DNA of 64,000 bases. Source: Bacillota bacterium. GTDB taxonomy: Bacteria > Bacillota > Clostridia > TANB77 > CAG-508. Position numbers and translations under genes: made by a program. Each line of letters starts with the position of its first letter. The stretch's first letter is position 1. Where the stretch lies: NCBI GenBank assembly GCA_963929915.1, contig CAWVJY010000008.1, positions 226,705-290,704 on the forward strand, read 5' to 3'. This document shows, piece by piece, positions 55,211 to 60,633 of the stretch. The notes under the pieces are model-generated. The model did not search any database. It was given only the letters and a program-made list of their open reading frames with translations, and was not told the origin of the DNA.

Positions 55211-55743
55211 AATGCACCCCTTTTACTTTTTTCTATTTTATTTATAATCAATTTTATTTTTATTAAAATGTTTGACAATCTAATTTTGCTAATTCATATT
55301 ATTTTTTCTTACTTAGATAAAAAATAATATGAATATCTAATATATCTTCCACATTATATACTTTCTATTAAGAATTTTCAACACTTTTGCTGATTTTTAT
55401 ACAATAACTCTTTAAATTTCCGTTTTAATTCTAACAAATAGATAATAGGAAAAAGTTGTTTGTGGAAGATAAAAGTAAAAAAATATATATATAATAAAAT
55501 AATTTAAGATATAGTAAAAAACTGGTATATTATATGTAAAAAATAAAAAAATGTGAAAACAAGAAGGTAAAGGCAAAAATCAAAAATATGAAATTAAAAA
55601 GTAAAGGGAAAAATAAAATAAAAAATAAAATCTTTTCAAGAAAAATTGTAAAATAAAGAAGGAAAAAAGAAAATTGTGGCGAATAATATAAATGTACATA
55701 AGAAATGTACAAAAAAATAAACTCGGAAGGATGGTACTTAAAA

Positions 55744-56031
55744 ATGCAAATTACAGATGTACGTTTAAGAAAAGTAAATTCAGAAAACAGAATGAAAGCT
55801 GTTGCTTCTGTGACATTTGATAACGAATTTGTTATTCATGACATTAAAGTTATTGAAAGTCAAAATGGATTATTTATTGCTATGCCAAGCAGAAAAACTC
55901 CTAATGGAGAATTTAAGGATATAGCTCATCCAATCAATGCTGAAACAAGAGAGAAAATTCAAAAAGCTATATTAGAAGCTTATGAAGCTCCAGAAGCTGA
56001 AGGAACTTCAGATACAGAATCAGCAGAATAA
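55744..56031 (+). CDS. spoVG: Septation/sporulation regulator SpoVG
   Basis: [64 protein letters not shown]. Confidence 0.93.
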
Positions 56032-56076
56032 TAAAATAAAAGAGAAGCTTAAAAACTATTACCAAAAGTAATTAGG

Positions 56077-56097
56077 GAGAAAAAGTTTCTCTTTTTT
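56077..56097 (+). terminator. Terminator after spoVG
   Basis: GAGAAA-AAG-TTTCTC followed by TTTTTT. Confidence 0.6.
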
Positions 56098-56198
56098 GTT
56101 GCTGAAAATATATTGATTAAAGTAAGAAATAAATTCATTATAGAGAGGAAAAATATAATAGGAATCAAACAATTTTCTTATTTAAGATAATAAAAAAT

Positions 56199-56225
56199 AG
56201 AAAGAGTAGATTTTCTACTCTTTCT
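56199..56225 (-). terminator. Terminator of the minus-strand 67-aa gene
   Basis: AGAAAGAGTAGA-TTT-TCTACTCTTTCT perfect 12-bp stem, with a T-run on the minus strand. Confidence 0.7.
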
Positions 56226-56235
56226 GTATAAAGGA

Positions 56236-56439
56236 TTAAGCTAACACCAAAGCATAGGAGCCAGGAGCAAGTTGAATTTCTCTTAAAACTCTTCCTCCTA
56301 GTTGCTTTTTTTCTGCGGATAGATAATCTCCATTTACGAAGATTACCTTGGGATTGAGAAACAGATTACGCATCATTTCGTTCTTTTTCTGGGACTCCAA
56401 ATACTCAGCTTCATTCTGAGTTAGTGCAGGAAACGGCAT
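56236..56439 (-). CDS. Hypothetical protein (67 aa), GC-richer than its surroundings
   Basis: ORF with an SD GGAGAGAG, no recognised motif. 26 of 60 nt are G+C at 56241-56300. Confidence 0.5.
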   Translation of the reverse strand: MPFPALTQNEAEYLESQKKNEMMRNLFLNPKVIFVNGDYLSAEKKQLGGRVLREIQLAPGSYALVLA

Positions 56440-56607
56440 TAAACTCTCTCCTTTTTATATAAAATTCCTGCTTTTACAGGATACTATTATTATATCACAA
56501 AATAAAAGAAAAAGCAAAAAAATTAGAAATTTTTACCAAAATAAATTAGCAATATTTGTAAATTTAAAAATCCCCTCCTCAAAAAAGGGGAGGGGAAAAG
56601 AGAGATC

Positions 56608-56988
56608 TTACAGCTGACAGAAGCTATCAAAGAATTCTTGCAATTTCTTGTAAGTTTTTTCGCTGGGAGGTACCAAAGTAATCTCCAAACTACAATCATT
56701 TCCTAAACCAAAGGCTACTGCACAACCTTGTGCTATTGCCATATTGTATTTCGTGGCAATCAAGCTCATTTCCCGCACAGAGTCAACTAACACGTGGATG
56801 TTAACTCTCACATCGGGCAATAGGGAAATTTGGACTAAAATGTTTTGCTTATCGCTATTGGGTACAGGGGTTACTTCTGCTGTCATCATAACAGACTTGA
56901 TTCCCGTAGGTTCGGAAAACATGAGTAAAATCTTCTGCAAGGGCATGTTCAGCTGTGCCAGTTTTAACCGAATGTTGAAATTCTCCAT
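56608..56988 (-). CDS. Hypothetical protein (126 aa), GC-richer than its surroundings
   Basis: Likely start MENFNIRLK (SD GAGAGGTG). The terminator CCCCTCC/GGAGGGG at 56572-56595 lies downstream on the minus strand. Confidence 0.55.
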   Translation of the reverse strand: MENFNIRLKLAQLNMPLQKILLMFSEPTGIKSVMMTAEVTPVPNSDKQNILVQISLLPDVRVNIHVLVDSVREMSLIATKYNMAIAQGCAVAFGLGNDCSLEITLVPPSEKTYKKLQEFFDSFCQL

Positions 56989-57175
56989 TAAAAACACCTC
57001 TCTATATATTATGGCAGTTGCCATTACTAGTATTATACCACAAAAAGTAAAATCTGTAAAACAGCACAAATTAATTCTAAAATAAAAATTTAAAATTTGA
57101 AAAAAGTATTGAAAAGAAAAATGAATAATGGTAAGATAAAGATAAAGTTAAATCAAAAGAGGAGGAATTAAGAAA

Positions 57176-58567
57176 ATGAACAAAAGTAGTAAAAACGTTG
57201 AAGTTTTAGAGAGAGAGAGAGAGTTACACTTTAAGCAAATAAAGGAGAAAAGAGGTATCACCCTTATTGCATTGGTTGTAACCATAGTGGTTTTGTTAAT
57301 TTTAGCAGGAATCACAATCAATATGTTATTTGGAAGTGATGGAATATTTAAAGTAGCAGAAGATGCAGGAGATGCATGGAATGAAGCAACAGTAAATGAG
57401 CAAGAAAGTTTAGACAACATAGCAGACCAAATAGCAAATTTAGTAAATGGACAAGCAGGAGGAGATGCAGGAACAGAAGAACCAGAAGAACCATGGATAC
57501 CACCAACAACAATAGAAGAAGCAATAGAACAAGATAAAATATTTGAAGAAACAAAACAAATAAAAGATAATTATAATAATACCGTAACTGTACCAAAAGG
57601 ATTTAAGGTAACAGAAGATGCTACAACAGTACCAGAAGGAATCGTAATAGAAGACGGAACAGGAACAGAAACAACTACAGGAAACCAATTTGTATGGATA
57701 CCAGTAGGAACCGTACATAAAGATAGTAATCCAGAAAATGATGTAACAATAAAACTAGGAAGATATACATTTGATACAACAGATGGAACACCAACAATGC
57801 AACAGGCAGCATTTGAAGGAGATAATGAAAATGATCCTAGTCAAACTTATGCATCAGATCCACCAGTTACTATAAATTCATATTATAGAGAATTAACAAC
57901 ATATAGAGAAGGAATAGCATCAGATGGAAGAAAAGGCTTAAATGCAACAGCTAAAAACTTAGCAGGCTTCGTTCAAAGTATAGCAAATAATGGAGGTTAT
58001 TACATAGCAAGATATGAGGCAAGCTATGGAAGTGGAAGTAGTACATCAGATTGGAAGCCATTATCAAAAGTATCCACAGGAACACCAAGAGGAGAAGACC
58101 AAGATAGTACACCATTAACACAAGGAATGCTATGGAACCATGTAACACAATTAGAAGCCTCAAAAATATGCCAGAATATGTATCAGGAAGGAGATACAAC
58201 AGTAGGAGTAGAAAGTGATTTAGTAAATAGTTATGCATGGGATACAGCAATCGTGTTTATCCAAAGCATGGATGAAGCAAATAGTAATTATGCAAATGCA
58301 AATAGAAATACAACAGGAAATAGAGTTTTAAAGAATACAGGAGAAACAGGAGATGAAGTATGTAACATATTTGATATGGCAGCAAATATAAAAGAATGGA
58401 CCACAGAATATTCCACGTACAAGCCTAACAGTGGTGCGGGCCCTTGCGTTGGCAGAGGAGGCATTTACAACGAATACGGCAGCGACTACACTGCTAACAG
58501 GAGCACGTATTATGCGATCACCAGCCGCCTCGATATCAGCTTTCGAGAGGTGCTTTATGTAAAGTAA
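57176..58567 (+). CDS. Type-IV-pilin-like protein with an FGE-sulfatase/C-type-lectin-like C-terminal domain
   Basis: Prepilin-type N-terminus KRG-ITLIALVVTIVVLLILAGI. FGE/SUMF1-like landmarks: GGYYIARYEAS, LWNHVTQLEASKIC, NSYAWDTAI, DMAANIKEWT, GRGG, ISFR. Confidence 0.75.
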   Translation: MNKSSKNVEVLERERELHFKQIKEKRGITLIALVVTIVVLLILAGITINMLFGSDGIFKVAEDAGDAWNEATVNEQESLDNIADQIANLVNGQAGGDAGTEEPEEPWIPPTTIEEAIEQDKIFEETKQIKDNYNNTVTVPKGFKVTEDATTVPEGIVIEDGTGTETTTGNQFVWIPVGTVHKDSNPENDVTIKLGRYTFDTTDGTPTMQQAAFEGDNENDPSQTYASDPPVTINSYYRELTTYREGIASDGRKGLNATAKNLAGFVQSIANNGGYYIARYEASYGSGSSTSDWKPLSKVSTGTPRGEDQDSTPLTQGMLWNHVTQLEASKICQNMYQEGDTTVGVESDLVNSYAWDTAIVFIQSMDEANSNYANANRNTTGNRVLKNTGETGDEVCNIFDMAANIKEWTTEYSTYKPNSGAGPCVGRGGIYNEYGSDYTANRSTYYAITSRLDISFREVLYVK

Positions 58568-58630
58568 CACTGACCACTGGTAGTGGTAACTAGTTTTAAG
58601 AAGAAAAATACAAAAAAGTCAGCAAAACTG

Positions 58631-58659
58631 TTGACTTTTTTGCATTCTCATTATATAAT
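58631..58659 (+). promoter_or_regulatory. Putative promoter of the S10 operon
   Basis: TTGACT at 58631-58636, a 17-nt spacer, then TATAAT at 58654-58659. Confidence 0.65.
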
Positions 58660-58672
58660 AATAAAGCATGTA

Positions 58673-58870
58673 TTTGGCGATGAAGTAAGATGTGGCTACA
58701 AATGTAGTAATTAAGCTCATTTGGAGGGAACTCTTATGGAGTATGTCGTGGCTTAGACCAGGCGGTAAGTTAAAAACAAAAAGCACTTATCCCAAGAATT
58801 ATCATGCGAGCTTGGGTTTTTATATTGGTAAACAACGAAACACCAGGGTGCGTTATAACTTCCGACCAAA
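58673..58870 (+). ncRNA. Candidate structured 5' leader of the S10 ribosomal-protein operon
   Basis: The closing helix TTTGGCG-at-GAAGT (58673-58686) / ACTTC-CG-a-CCAAA (58858-70) encloses about 170 nt. Inside are the sub-hairpins CTAC-AAAT-GTAG, ACTC-TTATG-GAGT, GGTAAGT...ACTTATCC and the pairing AAGCTC...GAGCTT. It is visibly GC-richer than neighbouring intergenic DNA. Confidence 0.4.
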
Positions 58871-58916
58871 ATAAAGGCAAAAAAGCCTAGAAAATTTAGA
58901 AGGAGGGAATTTTAAA

Positions 58917-59247
58917 ATGGCAACAAAGAAAGAAAACGCAGTAACAAGTGAAAAAATCAGAATAAGACTAAAAGCTTATGATCATGTTGTTTAGAACAGT
59001 CTGCTGAAAAAATAGTAGATACTGCTAAAAAAACAGGAGCTAAAGTATCAGGTCATATTCCATTACCAACAGAAAAGGAGATTATTACTATTTTACGTTC
59101 TCCACACAAACACAAAGATTCTAGAGAACAATTTGAAATGAGAACACATAAAAGAGTAATCGACATTCTTTATCCAACACAAAAAACAGTAGACAATTTA
59201 ATGAAAATTGATTTGCCGGCTGTGTAGATATTGAAATCAAATTATAA
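58917..59247 (+). CDS. rpsJ: 30S ribosomal protein S10 (frame broken by indels as written)
   Basis: [23 protein letters not shown], then shifted pieces ...[20 protein letters not shown]...[35 protein letters not shown]. There are missing bases at gttgttTag and ccggctGtgta. Confidence 0.85.
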
Positions 59248-59369
59248 TGTCAAAAGAATAATTTGTATTAGATAAAAAAGGAAGATGTATCCTTAAATAC
59301 ATCAAAACCATGCTAATTAATATTTAATATACAAATCAATTAATTAGCCAATAGTTAGGAGGAAATAAA

Positions 59370-59990
59370 ATGAATAAAGGATTAATAGGAAAAAAAGTAG
59401 GAATGACTCAATTCTTGATGAACAAGGAAAAGTAATTCCAGTAAACCGTTATTGAAGCAGGTCCATGTACTGTTGTACAAGTAAAAACAGTAGAAAATGA
59501 TGGATACCAAGCAATTCAATTAGGATTTGGAGAAGTAAAAGAACATAAAGTTAGCAAACCAGTAAAAGGTCATTATACAAAAGTAAACTTAACTCCAAAA
59601 AAACATTAAGAGAATTTAGAGTAGATTCTTTAGAAAATGTAAAAGTAGGAGACGAATTAAAAGCAGATATTTTTAGTTGCAGGAGAAAAGTTAGATATTC
59701 AAGGAACTTCAAAAGGAAAAGGATTCCAAGGTGTTATTAAACGTCATGGACAATCTAGAGGACCAATGGACATGGTTCTATGTATCATAGAAGACCAGGT
59801 TTCAATGGGACCAACTTCTACTCCAGGTAGAGTTTTCAAAGGTAAAAAACTACCAGGACATATGGGTAACCAAACCATTACTATCCAAAACTTAGAAGTT
59901 ATAAAAGTAGATTTAGATAAAAATGTTATTTTAGTAAAAGGTAGTGTACCAGGAGCAAAAGGTGCTATCTTAAAATTAAAAACAGTGTAA
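59370..59990 (+). CDS. rplC: 50S ribosomal protein L3 (multiple indels as written)
   Basis: [14 protein letters not shown]...; later pieces [10 protein letters not shown] and [22 protein letters not shown] (ORF 59766-59990). Confidence 0.85.
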
Positions 59991-60013
59991 AAGTAAATAA
60001 GGAGGAAAGACAA

Positions 60014-60632
<619 letters not shown>

Positions 60633-60633
<1 letters not shown>

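Follow-up and report, generated by a model that had tools for sequence, protein, structure and literature searches.

What kind of RNA lies between the promoter and the start codon of rpsJ in this uncultured clostridium, and is it a new sort of ribosomal-protein leader? In the stretch of DNA analyzed here (the window, 64,000 nucleotides long, all the features of which are given on the plus strand), the 5' untranslated region of the S10 (rpsJ) ribosomal-protein operon covers 58666 to 58916 and is ~251 nt long, ending where the ATG begins (58917). A reading made from the letters of the DNA (the sequence-only reading) had described a near-consensus promoter and a leader GC-richer than its surroundings at this site, and both descriptions held. 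A sigma-70-type promoter, TTGACT-17-TATAAT, is present at 58631 to 58659 and agrees with the consensus at 11 of 12 positions, and of 105 homologous leaders, 92 have an equivalent, near-consensus promoter at a constant distance; in these, 4 to 6 nt separate the end of the -10 element from the conserved core. Because the promoter offset is fixed in the homologs, transcription is predicted to start at about 58665 to 58667, giving a leader of ~251 nt. The GC content is 37.8% in the leader and 40.3% in its conserved core versus 29.4% in the window. Our scan also located the intrinsic terminator hairpin of the upstream open reading frame (ORF) (57176 to 58567) at 58611 to 58642, with 14 pairs, a loop of 4 nt, and a T-run; the -35 hexamer of the rpsJ promoter (TTGACT, 58631 to 58636) is located within the 3' arm of this terminator stem.

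We then compared the leader with Rfam. At gathering thresholds, zero matches were obtained in the leader region. When permissive filters were applied, RF03136 (S10-Clostridia ribosomal protein leader) was the best structured-RNA match and the sole one with the expected strand and position, covering 58672 to 58768 with 20.5 bits (E value of 0.081 in a 601-nt search) and missing the gathering threshold of 35.1 bits; this sub-threshold hit is what the cmscan check suggested by the sequence-only reading returned. The match spans model positions 1 to 81 of 81 and carries 16 inserted nt in the loop of the first hairpin, and no riboswitch family was matched in the leader in the Rfam search. The S10 motif figured among the putative ribosomal-protein leader motifs of Firmicutes reported by Yao et al. 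in 2007 (PMC1913097), and the leader was extended to Clostridia by Eckert and Weinberg in 2020 (PMC7247131; Rfam RF03136). According to the authors of the family, its ligand had not been determined; the family is presumed to bind an operon-encoded protein. The earlier statement that no equivalent leader was described for Firmicutes is thus wrong, since the S10 leader was published in 2007 and 2020, is in Rfam, and is the best Rfam match here. The proposal of a candidate ribosomal-protein autoregulatory RNA stands insofar as the leader of rpsJ is conserved, structured, and RF03136-like, but not as a new kind of element.

The low score was evaluated against those of related leaders. RF03136 was found at the homologous site in 18/18 rpsJ upstream regions scanned in evalue mode (five of them above the threshold), and the nineteenth source in the same scan, L134, gave no RF03136 match. 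Scores in the relatives were 43.1 (Acetivibrio), 38.2, 37.8, 36.3 (a Ligilactobacillus), 35.8, 34.6, 33.8, 31.6, 31.0, and 27.0 bits, and the nearest relative of the window, with 21.8 bits, stood at the bottom of a continuous series. The closest relatives had 21 to 31 bits and more distant leaders 34 to 43 bits. The closest relative retrieved is 89% identical, and the lineage motif AUGUGGCU is found in no sequence of the published RF03136 alignment. Because the closest relatives also score 21 to 31 bits and the series is continuous, the low score of the window leader is best read as divergence of the lineage, and a sequencing error is an unlikely cause, as the conserved blocks are all intact.

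This last point had called for attention, since the leader borders an error-dense segment and the sequence-only reading advised that its sequence be confirmed; we found every conserved block and helix intact despite two frameshifts in rpsJ. The rpsJ gene, which has an SD sequence (GGAGG) at 58902 to 58906 and runs from the ATG at 58917 to the TAA at 59247, has lost one base at each of two sites, in a T-run near 58990 and at a G near 59222, which breaks its frame, and the repaired S10 protein shows 95% identity to S10 of an uncultured Clostridia metagenome-assembled genome (MAG). Further downstream, the whole S10 operon (58917 to 64000) is broken up into short ORFs, a pattern that homopolymer or indel errors in sequencing typically produce. 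On the criteria applied here, the window leader belongs to the Firmicutes S10 leaders (RF03136) as a divergent member, which has every structural feature of the family and a score below the Rfam cut-off.

Several observations concern the DNA upstream of the leader. The ORF at 57176 to 58567 encodes 463 aa with a prepilin-like hydrophobic N terminus and gave no Pfam match. Its 3' end (~190 nt, 58381 to 58570) has 48% GC versus 34.5% in the remaining ORF; a diversity-generating retroelement was considered as the origin of this GC-rich end and was rejected, as the window contains no second copy or template repeat. Between spoVG (55705 to 56031) and the pilin-like ORF, the region from 56000 to 57170 harbors no long ORF on either strand and has a GC fraction of 0.338, slightly above that of the window.

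To define the conserved part of the leader, homologs were collected in two ways. The repaired S10 protein, searched against one genome per species, gave 80 loci; the closest 16 belong to uncultured Clostridia of the gut, among them a Candidatus Scatovivens MAG. A pattern derived from the leader gave 120 further metagenomic loci, and the two sets combined yielded 108 distinct leader cores. Across these 108 homologs, the promoter and ~200 nt are conserved, from the promoter to ~58870, in contrast to the spacer that precedes the SD. The small hairpin AGGC-A6-GCCU noticed earlier just before the SD is indeed present at 58875 to 58888, but it recurs in the closest relatives only, the spacer being otherwise variable. 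We also found the 8-mer GGAGGGAA twice in the leader, at 58723 to 58730 (internal loop and 3' side of P2) and at 58902 to 58909 (rpsJ SD region), and the additional copy might serve as an SD-like decoy or represent a recognition sequence common to both sites. One metagenomic locus, L178 (768 to 966, minus strand), has this leader in full, S4 and the SD included, and the ORF behind it starts with MENSKMKWYTLAFMAFSTVWGFG and is not S10; either the locus has been rearranged or the metagenome contig is a chimera.

Structural counts were made on an alignment of 67 sequences (A2) with pairwise identity below 92%. Our model of six helices, P1 to P6, has 87.8% of cells paired versus 79.7% in shuffles, with 274 double-sided changes versus 84 expected, in controls that remove the phylogenetic signal in part. 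When the partners were slid by 1 to 3 columns, pairing amounted to at most 48%. Aligning the rpsJ upstream regions of relatives for covariation had been suggested, and the outcome was favorable, with compensatory changes supporting P1, P2, P4, and P5. Unguided RNAalifold recovered P1, the base of P2, and P3.

The 5' part of the leader (58672 to 58768) is homologous to RF03136, and we refer to it as the sensor domain. Like the members of the family, it lies in the rpsJ 5' untranslated region on the same strand and consists of an unpaired GCGAUGAAG stretch, P1 with an internal loop, a P2 of variable length, a GGAG junction (GGAGUA in the window), and P3. The unpaired (U)GCGAUGAAG stretch that precedes P1 in the family is present as GGCGAUGAAG at 58676 to 58685 (model positions 5 to 14), which is invariant or nearly so in the 67 homologs. 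P1 (58685-58690/58732-58737 and 58692-58693/58730-58731) encloses P2, with 99.6% of cells paired and four pairs at which 23 to 30 sequences have changed on both sides. The arrangement of P1, internal loop, and P2 is that of RF03136, although the sequence of the internal loop differs from the family consensus, with AUGUGGCUAC and GGAGGGAAC here versus AGGUUGC and GGUAAUUU in the family. P2 (58696-58704/58718-58726) is a hairpin of variable length that covaries, with seven pairs changed on both sides; it contains a conserved A.G mismatch (58698/58724), replaced by A-U or G-C in 14 homologs, and its 3' side runs into the first GGAGGGAA copy. The GGAG(U/C) junction and the start of P3 with AUGUC, both features of RF03136, are found as GGAGUAUGUC at 58738 to 58747. 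P3 itself (UGUC-G-UGG/CCA-GGCG, 58744-58751/58758-58764) is mostly invariant and 92.5% paired. In the register of the published model, UGUC pairs instead with GGUA (58764 to 58767), and this alternative is 99% paired, with one-sided changes only. The register of the outer pairs of P3, with GGCG or with GGUA, is thus ambiguous, and both are compatible with the data.

The published RF03136 alignment and model end at the P3 hairpin. In contrast, the leaders of the lineage studied here continue for ~110 more conserved nt, comprising P4, P5 with a U-run, a GAAACACC box, and a strand that we call S4. The element shared by the possible pairings is S2 (GGCGGUAAGUU, 58761 to 58771), which can pair with UGUC (in P3), with S3 (in P4), or with S4; the outer part of P3 is made with the first four bases of S2. 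S3 (58785 to 58793) is the 3' strand of P4 and competes with S4 for S2. P4 (58765-58770/58785-58790) was the second-best covarying helix in an unbiased scan, with 93% of cells paired, a UA-to-CG exchange, and exchanges among GU, AU, and GC, and it can be extended by pairing G58764, G58762, and G58761 with C58791 to C58793. P3, P4, and P5 overlap each other by 1 to 3 nt only, and the best S2:S3 duplex overlaps the 3' strand of P3 by at least 3 nt in 45/67 homologs and the 5' strand of P5 by at least 3 nt in 46/67. Insertions are concentrated in the loop of P4, where several relatives carry 60 to 180 extra nt, often with hairpins of their own, and keep all the flanking helices (L103, L166, L191, L199; L099, L187, L098).

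P5 (58791-58796/58811-58816), followed by UUUUU (58817 to 58821), is a weak, terminator-like hairpin and a candidate attenuator. Five of its pairs have changed on both sides, cognate strands pair far better than permuted ones (z = -12.7), and a U-run of at least three directly follows P5 in 60/67 homologs (7/67 being without it) while the sequence of the stem drifts. In the window, P5 has 6 bp, a 14-nt loop, and an energy of -6.7 kcal/mol (median of the homologs, -7.2 kcal/mol), and it was not called by a consensus terminator scan of the region. For transcripts ending at P5, the form with P3, P4, and P5 differs from the alternative by a median of 2.25 kcal/mol, and this three-hairpin form is favored in 42/60 homologs. 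The loop of P5 contains UCAUGC (58802 to 58807), kept in two sub-lineages in an otherwise variable loop; it is complementary to GCAUG at the predicted 5' end of the transcript (58666 to 58670), with which it could be in contact.

Beyond P5 lies the conserved box GAAACACCAGGGUGCGUU (58837 to 58854), which also occurs, in the form GAAACAC(C/A)CGG...GUGU, in Clostridia leaders that are more distant. It can form a weak hairpin, P6 (58839-58843/58850-58854), with 66.6% pairing and an A.C mismatch that is conserved. The box also contains part of a possible pairing between UGGU (58826 to 58829) and ACCA (58842 to 58845), which scores well as a duplex (z = -7.8) yet is 60% paired in fixed register. 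A pairing of the 3' strand of P5 with the box was tried and discarded, as its cognate-versus-permuted z is -2.2 and it fails in two lineages. In Bacilli leaders (L034, L070, L077, L031), we observed that the P2 hairpin contains GACACACCCGG...GUGUG, which resembles the GAAACACC(C)GG...GUGU box of Clostridia; the same box module may occupy different positions in different lineages. We also considered whether the leader mimics the 5' end of 23S rRNA, given CGAUGAAG at 23S position 47 and GCGAUAAG nearby, and dismissed this, because comparison with shuffles for the first 530 nt of the 23S rRNAs of C. difficile and P. megaterium gave Smith-Waterman z scores of -1.3 to 1.4 and such 8-mers are expected by chance.

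The last conserved element is S4 (AACUUCCGACC, 58857 to 58867), which is complementary to S2 and offers a long-range alternative to P4 that can form only after read-through. In the MAFFT alignment, column-wise covariation of S2:S4 was not above shuffles (72% paired), and the support for this pairing comes from duplex energies. Since bulge geometry and alignment register vary by lineage, cognate S2:S4 duplexes were compared with permuted ones, which gave z = -6.3; the mean duplex energy is -9.3 kcal/mol versus -4.3 kcal/mol with shuffled S4. Lineage-specific compensations between S2 and S4 are seen as AAGGUU/ACCUU, CGACAAGGGU/ACUUUUGUCG, and GCGAUAAGUU/AACUUAUUG. The downstream box also occurs behind RF03136 members that score above the threshold (L017, L025, and L037), and for this reason the RF03136 family itself appears to be under-described and the downstream domain does not appear to be a separate invention. 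We tentatively suggest that the 3' half (~58761 to 58867) is a conserved two-state domain attached to the S10-leader sensor, in other words a new expression platform, apparently widespread in Clostridia, in which S2 would pair with the P3 stem, with S3 (setting up a weak terminator), or with S4, and in which proteins may find a second binding site at the GAAACACC(N)GG box.

We consider it likely that 58666 to 58916 is the S10-operon leader of uncultured low-GC gut Clostridia, composed of an RF03136-like sensor and an extension of ~110 nt, and that it mediates feedback attenuation by an operon protein, a mechanism that we infer. In short-leader relatives (some Clostridia as well as Bacilli and Negativicutes), the RF03136 match stops ~10 nt short of the ATG and the SD comes directly after P3, which suggests translational repression, so the same sensor probably acts on translation there. 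We propose P3-controlled termination in the window, because S2, P4, P5, and the U-run occupy the place where the SD follows P3 in these relatives. An operon protein in excess would bind the 5' domain and keep P3 closed. With P3 closed, S2 would be unable to extend P4 into the base of P5, the weak P5 terminator would be used more efficiently, and transcription would end at about 58817 to 58821, ahead of rpsJ. Transcripts that read through could refold, S3 being exchanged for S4 on S2. The published S10-Clostridia motif bears the source tag 'try-term-clostrid', which we take to denote intergenic regions selected for terminators. No specific Term-seq evidence on rpsJ leaders of Firmicutes was found in the literature searched.

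Other outputs of the same structures have to be weighed. As the terminator form of the nascent transcript is already the more stable one in most of the homologs compared, there may be default termination independent of any protein, or the poor P5 terminator may be read through constitutively. Another reading keeps the sensor and lets the S2:S3/S2:S4 exchange govern initiation of rpsJ translation or mRNA decay, with P5 and its U-run as structural elements and no terminator. Its attractions are the weakness of P5, which escaped the terminator scan, the conservation of S2:S4 with a stability at least equal to that of S2:S3, a pairing of S4 with the SD region in the window (-7.7 kcal/mol), and the position of the SD next to P3 in short-leader relatives. 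We regard it as rather unlikely, because neither the length nor the sequence of the S4-SD spacer is constant, because S4 in most lineages (CUUGCC) is not complementary to GGAGG, and because the U-run is retained after P5 despite the changes in the stem. Feedback by a ribosomal protein could also be lacking altogether, the 5' untranslated region being a stabilizing structure, a processing site, or a device for processive antitermination of the S10-spc-alpha transcript. That a ligand has been demonstrated for no member of RF03136 speaks for this view, which we nevertheless find improbable: long invariant unpaired stretches (GCGAUGAAG, GGAGGGAAC, GGAGUAUGUC, and GAAACACC) are conserved across Firmicutes classes, as specific binding sites typically are, no conserved block resembling boxA was observed, and the A-rich stretch before the box is variable.

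The architecture drawn in the sequence-only reading was different, namely a multibranched leader closed by a 14-bp helix (58673-58686/58858-58870) around several sub-hairpins, which would act like the L4-responsive S10 attenuator of E. coli. The helix can be formed in the window, where it has 12 Watson-Crick pairs and belongs to the single-sequence minimum-free-energy fold (the fold of the whole leader being not unusual, z = -1.15), but it is not conserved. Pairing across the 67 homologs is at shuffle level (63.5% of cells versus 61.2%), and in an anchored count of 100 homologs 7 of the 12 pairs are formed in only 36 to 63% of the sequences. Changes at the base of P1 are not followed by S4, which pairs better with S2 than with its partner in the closing helix (-9.3 versus -5.6 kcal/mol), and the E. 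coli leader is structurally different and restricted to Gammaproteobacteria (PMC3616713). We thus consider a closed leader of this type very unlikely; the comparison of homologs shows helices P1 to P5 conserved one after another, with the long-range S2:S4 alternative. Hardly any weight is given to a small-molecule riboswitch or to attenuation by a leader peptide (upstream ORF), which a long structured leader, a terminator-like hairpin, and a 60-codon ORF in the window might bring to mind. No riboswitch family was matched, and gene context and homology point to a ribosomal-protein leader. The ORF (58692 to 58874) exists as described, with a GTG start and no SD; it has no Pfam match, and its frame meets a stop within 24 codons in most of the 108 homologs. 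For the latter reason we judge that it is not coding, and it was rejected as a gene and as a leader peptide.

The attenuation favored here invites comparison with known systems. The window leader precedes the same operon as the S10 leader of E. coli, through which L4 mediates attenuation and translational repression. There, feedback by an operon protein acts on a leader terminator (PMC3616713). The E. coli leader has five hairpins, of which HD to HG are the conserved part and one covers the S10 start codon, and it is found in Gammaproteobacteria only (PMC3616713). Unlike it, the window leader has no hairpin over the start codon, a variable spacer before the SD, and helices P1 to P5 of the Firmicutes type, and the Rfam searches gave no match in sequence or structure between the two. 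According to Zengel and Lindahl, the terminator of the E. coli leader is reportedly weak and assisted by NusA. L4 is not specifically implicated as the ligand of the Firmicutes S10 leader, for which it would be a candidate only by analogy with E. coli. [quoted passage not shown] 2024, PMC11109978). It shares with the window leader its location in the 5' untranslated region of a clostridial rpsJ, and the downstream box domain is present in a Peptostreptococcaceae locus, L037. In the Bacillus subtilis infC-rpmI-rplT (L20) leader, binding of the protein shifts the balance from an alternative pairing to a terminator. The attenuation proposed for the window leader would follow the same logic, in an unrelated RNA with another protein and operon; the L20 leader gave no Rfam match in the window leader.

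These results remove a false claim of novelty, as the Firmicutes S10 leader has been known since 2007 and is in Rfam, and they show that an entire lineage of uncultured gut Clostridia, with leaders at 21 to 31 bits, escapes the RF03136 model. The published motif corresponds to the sensor half only, and the leader continues for ~110 conserved nt in many Clostridia. For annotation, 58692 to 58874 should not be called as a gene. The S10 operon offers about ten candidate ligand proteins, and the alignment of 108 sequences, with its covarying helices and two competing pairings, provides a guide for the design of constructs for binding and termination assays. If our tentative view of the 3' half is true, its two-state domain would be a new expression platform, possibly with a second ligand site, for a ribosomal-protein leader.
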